Virus record (IMG/VR): IMGVR_UViG_3300005654_000003
Coordinates: 7,132-71,131 of that record
Source of the DNA: a virus
Direction: 5' to 3' (one strand)
DNA length: 64,000 nucleotides
Shown here one piece after another: positions 11,038 through 63,239 of the stretch. The notes beneath the pieces are model-generated. The model saw nothing but the letters and a program-made list of their open reading frames with translations, did not search any database and was not told the origin of the DNA. The position numbers and the translations under genes are program-made. Every line of letters starts with the position of its first letter. Positions within the stretch are counted from its first letter, which is position 1.

Positions 11038-11488
11038 TGACATCTTCTGGCGTTAATGAAATGATCTCACCTTTATAGAGAATATCTATGTTTTTTTTCG
11101 TAAAATCAAACTGAGCTATACTGCCCACGCAAGTATTGCCTTCGTGTACAAATGTGACTTCGGATAGTTTACTGAAATAATTAACATAGTCCCATTTTTC
11201 CTGCATGCTTCTTTGCTCTTCATCTTTGTATATGAAGTTAGGGTAGCCAGAATTACCATAGATAATCATTTCAATGCTTTTCTTTACATCTGGTGAACTA
11301 AAGATATTGGGTAGCATGTTTCTATTAGCTATGTCTAAAATCTTATCTTTTTTCTTTTCAGCGACAAATGCCCAATATTTCTTGTGCTTTTGGTACGGAT
11401 ATATTTTAGAACGTAGCACGCATATTACATATTCTCGCTGTAATACCTCAAAGAGTTCGTATATTGATAAATTTCTTGACTTTGCCAT
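11024..11488 (-). CDS. hypothetical protein
   Basis: 154 aa; preceded by the TATATTTATA motif. Confidence 0.7.
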   Translation of the reverse strand: MAKSRNLSIYELFEVLQREYVICVLRSKIYPYQKHKKYWAFVAEKKKDKILDIANRNMLPNIFSSPDVKKSIEMIIYGNSGYPNFIYKDEEQRSMQEKWDYVNYFSKLSEVTFVHEGNTCVGSIAQFDFTKKNIDILYKGEIISLTPEDVTRIL

Positions 11489-11516
11489 TGTTTCTATATT
11501 ATATAAATATAGTAAA

Positions 11517-27471: not shown

Positions 27472-28203
27472 TTAAAATAAAGCACTTTTAATTTCATTTA
27501 ATACCGAATTTCCTGCCTTTTGTATAATATTATTTGCTGACAATGTAGCTGTTAATGCTCTTTGATCATCTGGACTAGCAAGATCTTCTATTCTAGCCAG
27601 TGACTTTAGCTGTAGATTGTAGTCCCAAATCATATTATGGGATTCATTTTGAGTAAAATCTATACCCATTGGCTTTACAATGTAGTTATTTCCCAACGCT
27701 AAGTTGTAAAAATATAGTTTATGAGGTGCATTGTTATCATCTAATTGTGAGGCCGTCTTCACAATTCTCTCTAAGATCTTGCTACAGCCATACCCTGTTT
27801 TAATGCTAGGTGAAAAATCTTGTACTCTATTACCATTCACTTGTCCAGATACACTAGAAAAAGAGAATGCAGAAAATGACACTACTTCTTTTCCAACTAA
27901 GAATTTGAATTGTCTACCAAAATTACCCTGTAAAGTAATATCTGTGGGCACAAATGTTTGAGTAGATATAGTTGTAATACCCCCTGCTGTTTTCTTAACG
28001 TTCATAATGGGACTATAGGATTCTCTTATTTCTTTAGGGTTTATGGGAAATAAAAAATACTCCACAGTTTCATCTTTAGAATTAACCAACTCTAATGCCA
28101 CCGCATACATTTCAATGTCATTGGGGAACAACGCATTTACGGCTGGCCTACCTACTGTACTAAGTAAGCCTTTATATCTATTAAGAGTATCTGAAACTGC
28201 CAT
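27472..28203 (-). CDS. baseplate/tail-tube initiator-like protein
   Basis: FLFPINPKEI...VKKTAGG...DITLQGNFG...WDYNLQLK pattern. Confidence 0.6.
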   Translation of the reverse strand: MAVSDTLNRYKGLLSTVGRPAVNALFPNDIEMYAVALELVNSKDETVEYFLFPINPKEIRESYSPIMNVKKTAGGITTISTQTFVPTDITLQGNFGRQFKFLVGKEVVSFSAFSFSSVSGQVNGNRVQDFSPSIKTGYGCSKILERIVKTASQLDDNNAPHKLYFYNLALGNNYIVKPMGIDFTQNESHNMIWDYNLQLKSLARIEDLASPDDQRALTATLSANNIIQKAGNSVLNEIKSALF

Positions 28204-28238
28204 GTATAAAAATAATTAAATGTAATGGGTTTAATGGG

Positions 28239-37796: not shown

Positions 37797-37973
37797 ATGA
37801 TGAGTCCAGAAGAATTAAAAGCAAAGAATAAAGCAGAATTACTTAAAGACATTGAAGCCTGTAAATCTCACGTTACATTAACTTACCTTGAAAGTAAGGC
37901 TTCAATAGCCATTAGAAGAATGGAAAGATTGGAGCAAATGATGGCAGAGGAAAGAGCACAACGCTCTTCCTAA
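37797..37973 (+). CDS. small hypothetical protein (58 aa), not in the ORF track
   Basis: MMSPEELKAKNKAELLKDIEACKSH...ERAQRSS*; stop overlaps the convergent protease stop. Confidence 0.5.
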   Translation: MMSPEELKAKNKAELLKDIEACKSHVTLTYLESKASIAIRRMERLEQMMAEERAQRSS

Positions 37974-39223
37974 AAGCTCACATAATACAATACCCCATCA
38001 ATAATATAGTAGCCTGATTTCCTTATTGCTCCTATTTGCTGGCCTAGAATAGTATATGTACCCCTCACATGAGGTGGTGCATTTTCTGGGCTTATTGGCG
38101 TTCCAAATCCCGTTGTAAAATCACATATTGTATCTGTTATGTAGATAGTATCTACTATAATGGTATCTGTTACATAGATGTATTCGATAATCGTATCGTA
38201 TTCTGTAACCTCTACAACTACGATAATGTTGTTGTAAGTAGTATCTACCACATTAATGATCGTAATGTTCGTGTCGTACTCATTAATATTGATCTGTGTA
38301 ATAATGGTATCATGTGTTTGAACTATAATCACATTAGTGTCATACACATTTACAATTACATCGTTATATGTAGTGTCATCTATCTGTACAGGTATAATAG
38401 TAGTGTCATACATTGTTACTGGAATGTTCACTGGAATAAATGTAGTATCGTATATAGTTACATCACCTATACATGTATCTGGTTCTTCTGGGTCTATTGT
38501 TGTTGTGCATTCAGTTAAACATGAATTGTTGTCATCTATAAATTCACTTATTTCTACTATACTTGCAGAGCTCCATAAATTTGTTCCTGATACCAATGGC
38601 GACATAATAAATGAAGTTCCAGATGGATCATGTCCAGCAGAAAAATTATGTCCGATCTCATGTGTCATTAACTGTCTTAGCATATTTGGATCAGTATTGT
38701 AGTATTCTAATACATTATACGGTACGCCTCTACATACGCCACCTACATACGCAATGCCAATAACACTTCCTGAATAATCCGTACCTGTCCATAGAGATGC
38801 CAATTCATGTGGCACTGTAATTCCACCTGACTGATCCCATGATCTAAATTGGGATAATTGATTAATAATGCTAGTGGGCGTAGAATCATTCCATAAATCA
38901 GCCGATGGGCTGGTAGAAACATATGTTCCAACTAAATTCAATTGAATTTCAGTACTAAATGCATTTTGATAATCGTCATTACTTAAAGCCGTAACAGTTT
39001 CTATATGGTTCACTACAGCACTTACGTTTGATCCAAAATCTAAATACATTTGATAATCGGCTACTGCAAAGTAATCAACAATTCTACAGTCTTCTGCAAA
39101 ACTATAATATAGTGGTTCTGATACGTGATTTAGTGAAGTATCGATCTCACCCTCTAAGCAAGTAACGTATTCATTGGTGTCTGGATTCGTAAAGAGTAAT
39201 GGTAGGAATAATAGAATGTTCAT
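37970..39223 (-). CDS. secreted reprolysin-like (M12B) zinc metalloprotease with DT-repeat stalk and T9SS-CTD-like tail
   Basis: HEIGHNFSAGHD zinc motif, FIMSP Met-turn, GIAYVGGVC; hydrophobic N-terminus; C-terminal YTILGQQI...KSGYYIIDG. Confidence 0.85.
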   Translation of the reverse strand: MNILLFLPLLFTNPDTNEYVTCLEGEIDTSLNHVSEPLYYSFAEDCRIVDYFAVADYQMYLDFGSNVSAVVNHIETVTALSNDDYQNAFSTEIQLNLVGTYVSTSPSADLWNDSTPTSIINQLSQFRSWDQSGGITVPHELASLWTGTDYSGSVIGIAYVGGVCRGVPYNVLEYYNTDPNMLRQLMTHEIGHNFSAGHDPSGTSFIMSPLVSGTNLWSSASIVEISEFIDDNNSCLTECTTTIDPEEPDTCIGDVTIYDTTFIPVNIPVTMYDTTIIPVQIDDTTYNDVIVNVYDTNVIIVQTHDTIITQININEYDTNITIINVVDTTYNNIIVVVEVTEYDTIIEYIYVTDTIIVDTIYITDTICDFTTGFGTPISPENAPPHVRGTYTILGQQIGAIRKSGYYIIDGVLYYVSF

Positions 39224-39299
39224 AATATAAAAATAACTAAAGCTGATCGCATTGATTTTTTTAGTATCTTAGTTTTTTTTAAACGCAAAATATAAGAGA

Positions 39300-40899: not shown

Positions 40900-41133
40900 T
40901 TATTTCACTGTATCTACTACTATAGTATCATTGATCACTGTATCAATTGGCATTACAATTGCCGTATCTACTACGGTACTATCTCCAATATTCAATTTAT
41001 CATTTACTGTCTCTTTAAAATCTGGAATTAAGAAGTAAGCTATTACGCCCACTACTGCAATTACTGCTACTGCTGTCTTTGTTCCTTTACTTTGGCCTTG
41101 AATCCAAGCCCATACTTTGTTTAATGTTTCCAT
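40900..41133 (-). CDS. small membrane protein with DT-rich exported tail
   Basis: TM AVAVIAVVGVIAYFLI; tail DSTVVDTAIVMPIDTVINDTIVVDTVK; TATATTTG upstream (about 41162-41169). Confidence 0.7.
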   Translation of the reverse strand: METLNKVWAWIQGQSKGTKTAVAVIAVVGVIAYFLIPDFKETVNDKLNIGDSTVVDTAIVMPIDTVINDTIVVDTVK

Positions 41134-41385: not shown

Positions 41386-41907
41386 CTATGGGTTATACAC
41401 AATAGGATCTAAATATCTGAAACTCTGATCTTTACCAGAAACAACTCCCTCTGATATATTAATGTTTTCACTTTCAATGAAACATCTTGTCACAGTAGCC
41501 AATGGCTCAGACGTTGGTATAATTAATCCTGTGTTAGGATCAGGTGAACCAGCATCAGCAATCTTCTTATAAAGATCAATCTGTACTCCTATGTCATCTA
41601 ATGTAAGATTATCTTCAAAGTTTGAAGTGTTGATTCCATTTGCCACTTGTGAAGCTGCATTGGATATTCCTACATCACGTCTTACCGCACCTGGAATACC
41701 AGTCTTTCTGTAATCAATCATATAGAACGAACATGTTAATGATCCACTCCATTGAGTCACAGGTGCTTCCTGTGGTAAAATAGTTCCTAATCCTCTAATA
41801 TCGGCACGTTGGAATGAATCAGAGATTCTTACATCTCTCATAAGACCGACAACTTGCCCTCTTACTTTAATGATGGCTATCCCACCGTGCAAAACCTGAT
41901 TTGACAT
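41386..41907 (-). CDS. tail tube protein
   Basis: 173 aa after the sheath; IIKVRGQVVGLMRD...RGLGTILPQE...GSLTCSFY...SFRYLDP. Confidence 0.8.
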   Translation of the reverse strand: MSNQVLHGGIAIIKVRGQVVGLMRDVRISDSFQRADIRGLGTILPQEAPVTQWSGSLTCSFYMIDYRKTGIPGAVRRDVGISNAASQVANGINTSNFEDNLTLDDIGVQIDLYKKIADAGSPDPNTGLIIPTSEPLATVTRCFIESENINISEGVVSGKDQSFRYLDPIVYNP

Positions 41908-41940: not shown

Positions 41941-42564
41941 TTATTTCTTCTTTCTTGCAGCCCAACTTTTCTTGGATGCTTCCGACAATTTTTTTCTTGT
42001 TTCCTCCGATATACCCCTAGCACATCTTTTTTTTGCACTAATGGACATCTTGGTTTTTTGCTCATCAGTTGCTTTTCGCCCTAAATGAATCTCCCTCATT
42101 CGCCTTTTAAACCCATCAGTCCTTTTCTTGCCTTGATTTGCAAGTGATATTTTACGCTTTGTCTCTTCTGACATCTTCATGCCCTTTGTTGGCGACACTC
42201 TTCCTTTAAATGCCTTGGACACCTTATCTTTAGTTTCCTGCGAATGCTTTTTGCCTGTATTATATATTCTTAATTTCTCTTTTGTAGAAGCAGCACATGG
42301 GCTTGATTTGCCACCAGATTCTATATTGTAGAACAAGCTAGATTGGTCAGCACCATAGTACTCTATATAGTATTTTTCCAAATCATTTAATTGACTAGAG
42401 TCTTCTGCATGAGCTAAGATTTCTTTTTTAAAATTCTCTTTACCGTACTTATTTATTGCTTTTTTAATTAATGTTCCAGAACCATAATAGGCAGGATTGT
42501 CATTGCAATCCTGCCCTATGTATTTTCTTCCGTTAACTAAATTAGTGGTACAGTAAACAATCAT
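41941..42564 (-). mobile_element. free-standing GIY-YIG homing endonuclease with NUMOD3-type repeats (Seg-like)
   Basis: IVYCTTNLVNGRKYIG...YYGSG...KYGKENFKKEIL...LEKYYI; HSQETKDKVS and MSEETKRKIS repeats. Confidence 0.88.
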
Positions 42565-42567
42565 TTA

Positions 42568-44205
42568 TTAAACTTCAACTATTAATCCTGTGAAGAATAT
42601 GAAGTTGATCTCACTATTCGGTACAAACTTATATTGAACAGAATAAGCATCTTGATTTCTACTAACAGTGATGTCATAGAAGTCTAGGATTAGATTATCT
42701 GATCCAGGTAATGCTTTCTTTGTTCTCAAATATCCAGTTAACCATGCCTTCACATCTTCTGGTGAAAGAGTGTTTCTGTTAGTTCCCACTGGGTTCTTGC
42801 ATAGTTGCTGCTTAGCATTAATGATAATCTCCTTATTTAACTGTCTCGCAATTCTTCTGATCTGCTTAGAATGAGTCGTTCCATCTTCATTTACTAAGAA
42901 TGTATTCTTTTGTAATGTATTCACGCCCTTAATAACGTCAAATGAAGCTCCATCTAATCTAACCACTACTACACCTGCATCTAATGCCTGAGTAACTTCT
43001 TTGTCAGTTAAATCATGCTGTAAAGAATCTACATTGATGTTTTTAAACGTCAATGGCACTTGTGGTGCTATTCCAGCTTCACGACCTAATACGGCTGCTG
43101 CTGTGTACATTGCACTGTAAAGTTTTAATCCTTGTCTTGTTATTTGTCTTGGGCCACCATGAACAACTGTTACTCTATCGTTATCGTAGAATTGGGCTGT
43201 AGCAAGTGAAAGAGCAAACTCATTTCTATCTTTACCACCAGCTACTACAAGCTCAGGTTTAAATACTGACTCATTATTAATGAATTCAGCTAATCTAAAG
43301 TTTAATGCACTTTGAGCATCTGCACCCCATTGGTCTGCAAGTATATATGAACTTTGATCATCTTTGATTGCTTCTAAGGCATCTTCAATAATTCCTGATA
43401 CTGCATAATCCTCTGTTCCCCCTGTCGCTAATTCATAGTCAACATAAGCATCTAAGTCATCTGAACCAATAGATCCATCACCCGTTACTGTAGATGCCTT
43501 TACTTTAAAGTTCTTTTGGAATTCAGAGTCAGTCTTCATCCATGTAATAAGTGTTTCAATATTATTGAATTCAGGTGAGCTGATCAATAATCTTGGCTTA
43601 GAATCTGCTTCACTGATATTATCATAAGGAAGTCCATTCTCATCTAATCCAGTGTAAGATCCTACATAAAACTTCATCATGAACTTAGAGCTATCGATTA
43701 ACCCTGTAGTCATCTTAGTTGCAAAACCCTTTATTAGTTCATCTGTTGCATTTAATACACCATTTGCACCCAACCCCTCATCAGTTACTTGAAGAGTGAT
43801 TGAACCACCCTCTGTACCAGCAGAAGAGTCACTTGCACCAGTAAACGTTAATCCAATTTCTGCTGCTGTAGTAGCTGCTGCTCTGATATAAGTTAATTTA
43901 CTAATCCCTGAGAAATTTAAACCTGCTGGCCTAAATAATGGGGAAGCCAATAACCACCAAAGTCCACCTTTAGTAAATTCTCTAAAGTCTTGAATGTTAT
44001 CGAATTCATATACGGCTTTTTTACCGCTTTCTAATTGTCCTTGAATTCCAGCACCACCACCAAAACCTGCTCCCGATCCTGTGTCAATGACTACTACATT
44101 GCCATAAGGTAAATTGAGTGTAGGGTTTTTAATACCTGATTTGATGTTTGAATAAACACCTGGAATTTTTATCGTATTTCCATTAAAATTGAAACTTGTT
44201 GCCAT
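42568..44205 (-). CDS. tail sheath protein
   Basis: FNGNTIKIPGVYS, YIRAA, LATAQFYDNDRV, PQVPLTFK, GVNTLQ, IRRIARQL, INFIFFT. Confidence 0.88.
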   Translation of the reverse strand: MATSFNFNGNTIKIPGVYSNIKSGIKNPTLNLPYGNVVVIDTGSGAGFGGGAGIQGQLESGKKAVYEFDNIQDFREFTKGGLWWLLASPLFRPAGLNFSGISKLTYIRAAATTAAEIGLTFTGASDSSAGTEGGSITLQVTDEGLGANGVLNATDELIKGFATKMTTGLIDSSKFMMKFYVGSYTGLDENGLPYDNISEADSKPRLLISSPEFNNIETLITWMKTDSEFQKNFKVKASTVTGDGSIGSDDLDAYVDYELATGGTEDYAVSGIIEDALEAIKDDQSSYILADQWGADAQSALNFRLAEFINNESVFKPELVVAGGKDRNEFALSLATAQFYDNDRVTVVHGGPRQITRQGLKLYSAMYTAAAVLGREAGIAPQVPLTFKNINVDSLQHDLTDKEVTQALDAGVVVVRLDGASFDVIKGVNTLQKNTFLVNEDGTTHSKQIRRIARQLNKEIIINAKQQLCKNPVGTNRNTLSPEDVKAWLTGYLRTKKALPGSDNLILDFYDITVSRNQDAYSVQYKFVPNSEINFIFFTGLIVEV

Positions 44206-44271
44206 CTATAATCGTTTGAAAAGTTTGTAATATAAAAATAACTAAAGCAAAACTTATGTGTTTTGGGTGCT

Positions 44272-48301: not shown

Positions 48302-48686
48302 TTATTAATGAAGAAATAAACTCATCTGTGATTTCTTCTTTGTGTACGACATTCTTGTAGATGCGATCTAATCTTTTTGCACCCTCTTCACTTGAAGTCA
48401 TAATAACGATTTTAACATCACCTACTAAATCTTTGATAATGGGCAAGCTGAATTCACCATCCATGCCATTTAAAGAATTATCTAATAAGACAAGCCCATA
48501 CTCTTTATCTGTGAGCATCCATGTAGCCTTTTCTACACTATCGATTGAATCTATGAATACATTGGGATGCTTGTTGAACTTTTGTGTTAATAGAAACACA
48601 TAAGCATCTGAATCTTCTATGATCAAGACATCTAATCTTTTTTGCTTTTTACTGAACGAAAACATATTTTTAACTGCATTTAACAT
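48279..48686 (-). CDS. single-domain response regulator (receiver)
   Basis: VLIIEDS, LVLLDNSLNGMDG, IVIMTSS, VVHK. Confidence 0.9.
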   Translation of the reverse strand: MLNAVKNMFSFSKKQKRLDVLIIEDSDAYVFLLTQKFNKHPNVFIDSIDSVEKATWMLTDKEYGLVLLDNSLNGMDGEFSLPIIKDLVGDVKIVIMTSSEEGAKRLDRIYKNVVHKEEITDEFISSLINDSNGSK

Positions 48687-48715
48687 GATACTATAAAAAT
48701 AAGGAATTCAAACGA

Positions 48716-61775: not shown

Positions 61776-63239
61776 CTAGTTAAGAGTTTTCCCAACGTTT
61801 ACAAACTTAACCATTTTCTTAGGTGCATACAACTGAGGCGTTGCAAATAAGAATGCTACAAAAGATCTACTCAATCCAACTACAGCAAGGTCTAACTTAG
61901 ATACAGGTGCAAGTTGCTTAAAGCTCATTGCTTCTTCTGTCATCTCAGCTAAGAATGCAGTTTCACAGTCAGGAAGTAATCTATGTCTGTCTCTTGCAAG
62001 ACCAGGTGCAGCACTATCATAGCCAGAAGCTAATTCAGCAGCAGATACTTCAAAGATTGGGTAAAACTTACCAGTGTTCGCACCGTTTACTTTAGTTCTA
62101 TATACTCTAAATGCAGTTGCAGCGAATGCAGATCCTACACCAGCAGAGAAATCTAAATCTACAGATGATCCAACTGTAAGAGTTACAGCAGCTCCTTGAA
62201 CTGTTAATGCAGACTCTCCATATCTATTGATGGCAGACACAGCATAAAATACTGGGCCATCTTCACCAGCTTCAAGTACAGATGAACCATCAGTAGCAAG
62301 TGCAGGTGAAGCATCAGCTACAGGGGCAGCAGGTGCTTTCACACTTGTAGCAGTATTAGATGATAACTTAGCAGGCTCAGCAGCCATGAATTTATCGTTT
62401 CCTAGAGTGATGTCACCCATAGTAGTAGAAATAGCCTTTGGAACTGTTCCAATAACACCGTCATATCCACCACCGTTCATTAAGATACGCTGATCATTGT
62501 AATAATCTTTTGCTAAAGCAGAGATTACAACTGGTGCAGCAAATAAGTGAGTTGGAATACCAAAATTAGCATCTACTCTTACTGCTCCGTCTTCTACATC
62601 CTCTTGTTTAAGAGACTTTCCTCTTAAATCTACAACAACTTCTGATCCGTAATACGCATCAAGGTTATTATATAAGAAACCGCTACCAGTTCCAATAGAA
62701 GCATGCTGTGCATATAAACCATTCCACTCTTCTGGAACGATATTCTCGTTTCCTTTAGTGATAAAGGTATTCGCTCTACGCTGAATCCACATTACTTTGT
62801 TAGAAACCTCTTTAGCCATTGCTGGAACAAAAGATTTCACCATTTGTGCTTGAAGAGTTACAGATCCAGTTACTTGTAAGTACTTGATCTTTTCAGCACG
62901 TCTTACATACTTAGAATCTTCTACATCAGAAAGTTCTCCTTCCCCGTAAAAACCTCCACGTTGATTACCATAAGACTCTAACTGAATAAATTCTTCAACT
63001 GTGTTATAAGCAGTCATTTTTGGCATTGCATTGATTAATTTTAAATCACTTGTTCTGTGATCTAATAATTTCAATGTCTTTTCTAAAGATTCAGCTTTTA
63101 ACGGCTCTTGCGTTAAAGACTGATTTGCGGTTTCACGTCCTGTGATGTGACCAGCTTGCATAGCTTTCAATAAGTACTCTGCATCTTGCCCACCGTCACC
63201 AGCGAATCCGTTTTGCATATCGTCTAAAGTGTTGTTCAT
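61776..63239 (-). CDS. major capsid protein (SPO1/Twort-like HK97 fold)
   Basis: LKAMQAG, LKAESLEKTLK, AYNTVEEF, EKIKYLQVTGSVT, EWNGL, VVDLRG, FKQLAPVSKLDLA, PKKMVKFVNV. Confidence 0.92.
   Translation of the reverse strand: MNNTLDDMQNGFAGDGGQDAEYLLKAMQAGHITGRETANQSLTQEPLKAESLEKTLKLLDHRTSDLKLINAMPKMTAYNTVEEFIQLESYGNQRGGFYGEGELSDVEDSKYVRRAEKIKYLQVTGSVTLQAQMVKSFVPAMAKEVSNKVMWIQRRANTFITKGNENIVPEEWNGLYAQHASIGTGSGFLYNNLDAYYGSEVVVDLRGKSLKQEDVEDGAVRVDANFGIPTHLFAAPVVISALAKDYYNDQRILMNGGGYDGVIGTVPKAISTTMGDITLGNDKFMAAEPAKLSSNTATSVKAPAAPVADASPALATDGSSVLEAGEDGPVFYAVSAINRYGESALTVQGAAVTLTVGSSVDLDFSAGVGSAFAATAFRVYRTKVNGANTGKFYPIFEVSAAELASGYDSAAPGLARDRHRLLPDCETAFLAEMTEEAMSFKQLAPVSKLDLAVVGLSRSFVAFLFATPQLYAPKKMVKFVNVGKTLN

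Follow-up and report, generated by a model that had tools for sequence, protein, structure and literature searches.

Can a phage use its host's type IX secretion system (T9SS) to place an enzyme on the surface of the infected cell, and how much of the T9SS C-terminal domain (CTD) would such an enzyme have to carry? The question is raised by a metalloprotease gene (P0001) in a 64,000-nucleotide stretch of viral DNA, hereafter the window, which comprises bases 7132–71131 of the 71-kb IMG/VR viral record IMGVR_UViG_3300005654_000003 (CheckV completeness 72%). The original prediction for this gene held that its product is a phage-encoded protease that may be exported through the host T9SS late in infection. 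The observation behind it (an intact protease, a repeat stalk, a short tail and a 20-mer shared with a structural gene) is confirmed, and the interpretation as a T9SS-exported protease is partly supported: we assign a probability of roughly 0.42 to the overall reading that P0001 is a phage protease, made late and exported, whose reduced tail derives from a CTD.

An exhaustive profile search over 1.84 billion representatives, using the C-terminal half of the protein alone as query, returned four further proteins with the entire layout (P0002, P0006, P0008, and P0009; 351–389 aa, 37–44% identical). Within this family of five, the predicted hydrophobic N-terminus of P0001 is recognizable. It begins MNILLFLPLLF and, like that of P0002, aligns with the signal peptides of P0008 and P0009, which have textbook n-, h-, and c-regions (ending ...NS/QH and ...HS/QQ), but neither P0001 nor P0002 has a basic residue in this region. 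Conservation of the N-terminal segment argues for translation from the ATG at 39223, and the N-terminus appears to be of the export type, such that the protease would probably leave the cytoplasm by the Sec route. We rejected a lipoprotein reading of Cys22, since there is no lipobox and the cysteine lies 7–10 polar residues beyond the hydrophobic core.

The catalytic domain that follows also has the features originally described for it. Five Pfam models (Reprolysin_5, Reprolysin_2, Reprolysin, Reprolysin_3, and Reprolysin_4) match residues 47–237 with E-values from 2.6e-15 to 4.4e-9, and the scores of these models (PF01421, PF13688, PF13574, PF13582, and PF13583; 36.7–57.6 bits) all exceed their gathering cut-offs of 20.8–27. 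The zinc site HExxHxxGxxHD is intact (HEIGHNFSAGHD, residues 188–199), with H188, E189, G191, H192, and H198 invariant among the five family members, as are M207, S208, and P209 of the Met-turn (FIMSP). Six cysteines are conserved across the family, consistent with an exported, disulfide-bonded enzyme. By these residues, P0001 looks like an intact and active M12B zinc endopeptidase.

Between the catalytic domain and the tail lies the predicted stalk, with twelve DT dipeptides in residues 249–365 and a composition of 58% I, V, or T over residues 252–366. Tandem repeats are weak at the DNA level, so the stalk consists of diverged protein repeats; these match no Pfam family. Like repeats stand directly before DUF6383/Por_Secre_tail domains in P0014–P0017 (BspA-LRR and InlB-repeat proteins), and DT repeats occur in other secreted-looking proteins as well (P0007 and P0010–P0013). 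P0014–P0017, which are of Bacteroidales type, resemble the phage protein in that a YDT(I/T) repeat stalk ends DTIYIxDT right before the C-terminal domain, and the junction aligns, but they differ in having a full-length CTD (PF19910, 32.6 bits; TIGR04183, 20–23 bits) and other passengers (BspA LRR, InlB B-repeat). The DT repeats are best read as a surface stalk, a module that recurs in surface proteins that are mostly of Bacteroidota type. We also considered a type V autotransporter and rejected it: no Pfam barrel model matches residues 240–417, the strands between DT turns are 6–9 residues long and hydrophobic on both faces, and the same repeats precede CTDs elsewhere. Among the other repeat proteins, P0007, P0011, and P0013 carry long FDTT/YDTT arrays and a common C-terminus that ends G(Y/H)RR; these proteins belong to no Pfam family and may represent another C-terminal sorting class.

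The tail resembles a T9SS signal in its position and its motifs. Like the type A CTD (TIGR04183/PF18962; RgpB, PorZ, and RemZ structures), the phage tail occupies the extreme C-terminus after a linker, and both have a (F/Y)Dx(x)GR-type beta3-loop-beta4 motif in which the Gly is invariant, followed by a GxY(I/L/V)(I/V) strand and a last strand. The consensus of the five phage tails at this loop is GIYDMLGREV, in which Gly394 is invariant, and hhalign placed this segment on the (V/I)YDxxGRxV hairpin of 19 real CTDs with 78% probability over 11 columns. An alignment of the tails with P0014–P0017 in MAFFT brings four elements into register, namely the last DT repeats, the hairpin, the strand with SGxY(L/I)V, and the strand at the very end, with three intervening segments missing from the phage tails. 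The hairpin corresponds to the Lbeta3beta4 motif, replacement or deletion of which in RgpB (F695-DMNGR-R701), or the single change G699R, blocks secretion in Porphyromonas gingivalis (PMC11285876); according to the same paper, CTDs can be species-specific. The best reading of the tail is as a type A CTD that has been drastically reduced. The combined proposition, that it derives from such a domain and may still work as one, making T9SS export plausible, seems to us somewhat short of an even chance.

Short tails of a similar kind occur on cellular proteins. In a metagenome scan, a DUF4960 protein (L110) encoded beside a GH32 gene was found to end in a 52%-identical tail, and one of 401 evenly sampled Bacteroidota genomes (G123) encodes at least four proteins ending in full-length mini-tails (L112 and L121–L123). 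This genome also encodes the T9SS translocon protein SprA (2688 bits) and 18 canonical CTDs, and TIGR04183 missed three of its four mini-tails and gave the fourth 13 bits. Mini-tail-like matches were present in 21 of the 61 genomes of the same family, with up to eight per genome. A hidden Markov model (HMM) built from the phage tails alone gave canonical CTDs 15–17.5 bits and cellular mini-tails 13–30 bits (25–30 bits for L110 and L112), whereas no decoy among 718,000 aa translated in six frames exceeded 4.6 bits; because part of this test set was picked with a related profile, the scores weigh more than the E-values. The recurrence of a short C-terminal module on different large proteins is behavior like that of a sorting or anchoring signal. 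Cellular and phage tails share a C-terminal module of 30–36 aa with the pattern GxY(D/T)xxG...GxY(I/V)(I/V)(D/N)G...hairpin, whereas PxGxY and a KxxK-like end (GQKVVK) are retained in the cellular tails, which have no DT stalk. Their likeness to the phage tail is no proof of function. The tail profile found nothing convincing in four Saprospiraceae genomes (best E 0.035), which gives no host link from those genomes via the tail.

The timing of expression is suggested by a motif upstream of the gene. The 20-mer AATATAAAAATAACTAAAGC abuts the protease start and is repeated exactly upstream of the tail sheath gene, as had been reported; the chance expectation is 0.06 matches even allowing three mismatches. 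Its designation as a late-type motif also holds, in that the core TAT[AT]TTTATA (here TATTTTTATA) occurs 13 times on the minus strand of the window and 0 times on the plus strand, with 12 of the 13 copies lying 1–25 nt upstream of minus-strand starts, including those of the capsid, sheath, virion protein, and tail-module genes. Given this strand-specific placement ahead of capsid, sheath, and virion genes, late transcription of the protease together with the structural genes is a fair inference. The gap between core and ATG is 1, 2, and 5 nt at three minus-strand genes (28203–28214, 39223–39235, and 48686–48701) and 13–25 nt at the other sites; the 2-nt gap is that of the protease. If the core acts as a -7/-10 element, the mRNAs of the three short-gap genes, the protease included, would be leaderless.

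Several results weigh against T9SS export. Neither the type A models (TIGR04183 and PF18962) nor the type B models (TIGR04131 and PF13585) matched at E<=10 in the whole protein, in three C-terminal pieces of it, or in any of the five family members, and a six-frame TIGR04183 search of the whole phage record was empty, with no CTD found anywhere in the record. The controls passed: with TIGR04183/PF18962 cut-offs of 23 or 27 bits, the C-termini of Saprospiraceae homologues scored 32–39 bits and genome G123 yielded its 18 matches above cut-off. The proposal that the tail is a T9SS sorting domain was therefore not borne out by any model. The type A CTD is a seven-strand sandwich of 70–100 aa that is held to be the recognized unit (PMC10994853, PMC5445135, PMC11285876), whereas the phage tail comprises ~30 aa after the last DT repeat and a ~20-aa linker, which leaves it ~40 aa too short; it has four predicted short strands in place of seven, lacks the PNP-type first hairpin and KxxxK, falls below the HMM cut-offs, and ends in an aromatic residue. 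The tail of the window copy is, moreover, the most degenerate in the family at exactly the motif positions, where D is replaced by T, R by Q, and K by V. Its loop motif is weakened to YTILGQQ (TYTILGQQI), compared with the YDMLGRE of the consensus, and Val stands where four of the five members have a single Lys (NGK), at the position of the near-invariant, PorV-contacting lysine of CTDs. In those domains this conserved lysine of the C-terminal strand contacts PorV and is a second required element besides the hairpin. The window copy has SGYYIIDGVLYYVSF, with GxY(I)(I), but no Pro and no Lys in the last strand, so that neither PxGxYVV nor KxxxK is present; the tail sequence originally quoted, and the absence of a terminal KxxK, were both accurate. 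Upstream of the tail, the n-region of the signal-peptide-like N-terminus of P0001 has no basic residue, and if the promoter core is a -7/-10 element, the 2 nt that it leaves before the ATG mean that translation of the signal peptide would need a leaderless mRNA. Finally, the presence of a T9SS in the host, a likely member of the Bacteroidota, is assumed.

Structure prediction, with models too weak to test the fold, counts neither for nor against the CTD reading. AlphaFold2 (AF2) on the full-length protein with a 2-sequence alignment gave a mean predicted local distance difference test score (pLDDT) of 29.7, which is unusable. With five sequences and residues 320–417, one model reached pLDDT 61 (35–48 for the rest) and showed long repeat hairpins and four short strands in the tail; a Foldseek search with this weak model found nothing below E 0.1 in the PDB or among AFDB clusters. 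An ESM Atlas model of residues 341–417 aligned with the C-termini of Bacteroidota secreted enzymes at template modeling (TM) scores of 0.45–0.52, which serves as a lead only. An ESM Atlas feature search with residues 340–417 returned two clusters of small, exclusively viral proteins (87 and 158 aa; 101 and 223 members) with scores of 0.94 and 0.93.

The distribution of the family indicates that the gene is mobile. Its members form five clusters at 50% identity, all with the whole architecture and at least two in unrelated phages. The IMG/VR contig that encodes P0008 is 41 kb long and also carries genes for a terminase (E 1e-106) and a portal (E 1e-108), and the protease is the only thing common to this contig and the window, which argues that the gene moves among unrelated phages; P0002, P0006, and P0009 lie on short contigs of small unannotated genes. 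In the P0008 phage (L084) and the P0006 phage (L086), the protease gene overlaps by 4 nt a conserved downstream gene of 145 aa (11056–11493 and 1369–1806, respectively; phrog_13596, function unknown) that has no counterpart in the window. A word-index protein search restricted to residues 245–417 returned the query alone.

No cellular genome among the 80 best bacterial loci has the exact architecture of the protease. The nearest cellular catalytic domains (35–43% identity) come almost entirely from Saprospiraceae/Lewinellaceae metagenome-assembled genomes, in uncharacterized multidomain M12B proteins (loci L003–L063) that resemble the phage protein in their order of catalytic domain, spacer modules, and C-terminal element. 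Many of them end in canonical type A CTDs (TIGR04183, 32–39 bits). The bacterial proteins are 600–1400 aa long, with PKD-type repeats and a full CTD of ~75 aa, in contrast to the 351–417 aa, DT stalk, and 30-aa tail, matched by no CTD model, of the phage proteins. Other M12B proteins were seen: a separate group on IMG/VR viral contigs (L088–L096; 372–446 aa), in which a basic, Lys/Arg-rich beta domain of ~80 aa replaces stalk and tail, and two proteins (L103 and L106) ending in CTD-like sequences (PNP...GxY...K).

That the gene is phage-encoded, as proposed, is clear from its surroundings. Besides belonging to a viral record, the window contains PHROGs matches to a major head protein (61779–63239; phrog_752, E 4.5e-61), a tail sheath (open reading frame (ORF) 42568..44205, minus strand; phrog_279, E 4e-28), and a virion protein (41389–41907), and the P0001 protein is also present on Logan contigs of ~99 kb from one marine metagenome. 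The sequence was located in a single marine DNA run and in no listed RNA data set. The protease is the sole minus-strand gene among small plus-strand genes from ~35.3 to 40.8 kb, which gives it the appearance of an inserted accessory gene. Neither it nor a 77-aa neighbor belongs to a PHROGs family, tblastn of the protease against 50,697 records of cultured phages found no match, and megablast of 8 kb against cultured phages gave merely a 33-nt chance match. The nearest cultured relative of the sheath is that of Chryseobacterium phage MA9V-3 (43% identity), followed by Bacteroides phages; together with the nearest cellular catalytic domains, these relatives make Bacteroidota the likely host.

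Other features of the region are noted here for completeness (see Table 1 for those of the protease itself). The 77-aa ORF (40900–41133, minus strand) has one transmembrane helix and a C-terminal (V/I)DT(V/I) run resembling the protease stalk, with an HMM likeness that is not significant (3.1 bits) and no informative match in the ESM Atlas; no other gene with this tail or stalk was found in the window or in phage L084. A homing-endonuclease-like gene (41941–42564, minus strand; phrog_314, E 1.7e-39) separates the sheath gene from the virion gene that comes next. Directly after the protease stop, within the end of the convergent plus-strand ORF 37797–37973, is an imperfect inverted repeat, GGAAGAGC ... 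GCTCTTTCC (37945–37970), which could be a terminator common to both genes; the terminator scan did not call it, and the sigma-70 and terminator scan as a whole gave nothing exceeding shuffles.

Table 1 Coordinates of the protease gene, its parts and the two copies of the 20-mer in the window.
Feature	Position	Strand	Remark or basis
Protease gene P0001	37970..39223	-	417 aa; first ATG following in-frame stop
Signal-peptide-like hydrophobic N-terminus, residues 1–22, to conserved Cys22	39158..39223	-	Sequence reading; alignment with P0008 and P0009
M12B (reprolysin-like) catalytic domain, residues 47–237, with HEIGHNFSAGHD and Met-turn M207	38513..39085	-	Pfam; family alignment
DT-repeat beta-rich stalk, residues 249–366, 12 DT turns	38126..38479	-	Sequence; repeats in P0014–P0017
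Pro/Gly-containing linker between stalk and tail, residues 367–387	38063..38125	-	Family alignment
Conserved 30-aa C-terminal CTD-like mini-tail, residues 388–417, four predicted short strands	37973..38062	-	Alignments; profile comparison; model
20-mer AATATAAAAATAACTAAAGC, copy 1, core TATTTTTATA at 39226–39235	39224..39243	-	Abuts protease ATG; as a promoter, would imply a leaderless or near-leaderless mRNA
20-mer, copy 2	44229..44248	-	23 nt upstream of sheath gene start (44205)

Taken together, these data suggest how the protease might function. P0001 would be an accessory gene of the moron type in an uncultured marine myovirus that has a genome of ~99 kb and probably infects Bacteroidota. 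It would be transcribed at the same time as the structural genes, the phage late-type promoter motif being present in a copy of its own. Its product appears to be built like a Bacteroidota cell-surface enzyme: a Sec-type signal is followed by the catalytic domain, then by a rigid beta stalk of DT repeats, and, after a short linker, by the 30-aa tail. This tail seems to keep the beta3-loop-beta4 motif and the terminal beta-hairpin and to have lost strands beta1 and beta2 and one middle strand, and in the window copy the conserved lysine as well. We infer a route by Sec to the periplasm and from there to the cell surface, or display on it, via the host T9SS late in infection, where the enzyme could cleave envelope or surface proteins, such as adhesins or the receptor used by the phage itself, either ahead of lysis or during it. 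Receptor removal and biofilm dispersal, the roles first suggested, are guesses. The more specific proposal, that the 30 aa form a natural minimal T9SS signal (a four-strand mini-CTD of beta3-beta4 loop motif and terminal hairpin) with which the phage pushes a stalked protease onto the surface of infected Bacteroidota late, for example to destroy its own receptor before release, strikes us as doubtful. In favor of T9SS export are the tail motif, the cellular mini-tails in a T9SS-positive genome, and the DT repeats before genuine CTDs; with no CTD model matching, it stands as a live hypothesis and not as a finding.

The concept of phage-encoded T9SS cargo is not new: proteins of a 'Cryophage' bearing sorting signals have been proposed to hijack host secretion (Bellas et al. 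2020, PMC7468147). In that case too, the host is of Bacteroidota type and the phage has accessory genes for hydrolytic proteins with T9SS sorting signals, but these genes (an endoglucanase, a GH39 protein, and a PA14 protein) are annotated with canonical type A domains, whereas P0001 is a protease with, at best, a mini-derivative. What appears to be new here is the compact family of proteases, together with the mini-tail and the stalk module.

Much of the same evidence would also accommodate a protease that is exported by Sec and goes no further. Retained in the periplasm or envelope, it could aid lysis in a spanin-like manner by cutting envelope tethers or outer-membrane proteins, with stalk and tail serving as a structural or oligomerization module that has no role in T9SS. 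A signal-like N-terminus and conserved cysteines are consistent with this route, the late-type motif fits the timing of lysis, a glucosaminidase-domain gene that may encode an endolysin lies ~2 kb off, no spanin was recognized, and every CTD HMM test was negative. We nonetheless find this rather unlikely: the protease is on the opposite strand and outside the transcription unit of the putative lysin, the long rigid stalk would have no obvious periplasmic use, the layout of stalk plus tail is that of surface-displayed Bacteroidota proteins, and the tail, CTD loop motif included, is conserved over five diverged members. The same conservation bears on a different possibility, namely that the tail is a decaying CTD relic captured along with a bacterial protease gene, that it no longer works as a signal, and that the enzyme is freed at lysis to digest the surrounding matrix, receptor-bearing debris, or competitors. 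In all five members, conservation within the C-terminal half is highest in the tail, which argues for selection, and a signal peptide would be pointless for an enzyme released by lysis, unless its disulfides need periplasmic folding. A relic would, however, explain why the window copy has lost the motif D, R, and K that its relatives keep and why the tail has no score with CTD models, and the multi-domain CTD cargo among the cellular relatives is a possible source of a trimmed copy; we regard this explanation as unlikely.

A particle-borne protease that cuts a proteinaceous surface layer at adsorption, with the DT region as a fiber-like shaft, is highly improbable. Beta-rich repeats with very hydrophobic strands could make a fiber, the late promoter motif is common to structural genes, and the ESM Atlas feature search with the C-terminal 78 aa gave viral clusters first, a result to be taken as a lead only. 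Yet the gene is not part of the structural module but stands among small genes on the plus strand, has no PHROGs match, and encodes a signal-peptide-like N-terminus and conserved cysteines that indicate export. Its enzymatic head is N-terminal, whereas fiber proteins attach to the virion by the N-terminus, and the same repeats are found in cellular proteins ahead of secretion domains.

Phages of Bacteroidota abound in both sea and gut. If P0001 is exported and displayed on the surface while virions are assembled, as the reading of a late-made protease with a CTD-derived tail implies, it would have a receptor-destroying or envelope-remodeling function, and we found no description of such an exported protease for these phages in the literature. 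Should the tail not work as a signal, the gene would still be a small and tidy case in which a phage has pared down a host surface enzyme that it captured. If it does work, it would show how little of the T9SS CTD the translocon needs, a current question in a field that takes the folded seven-strand domain to be the signal, and would offer a compact display tag. No smaller T9SS signal would then be known, and phages would be putting the secretion machine of the host to a new use.

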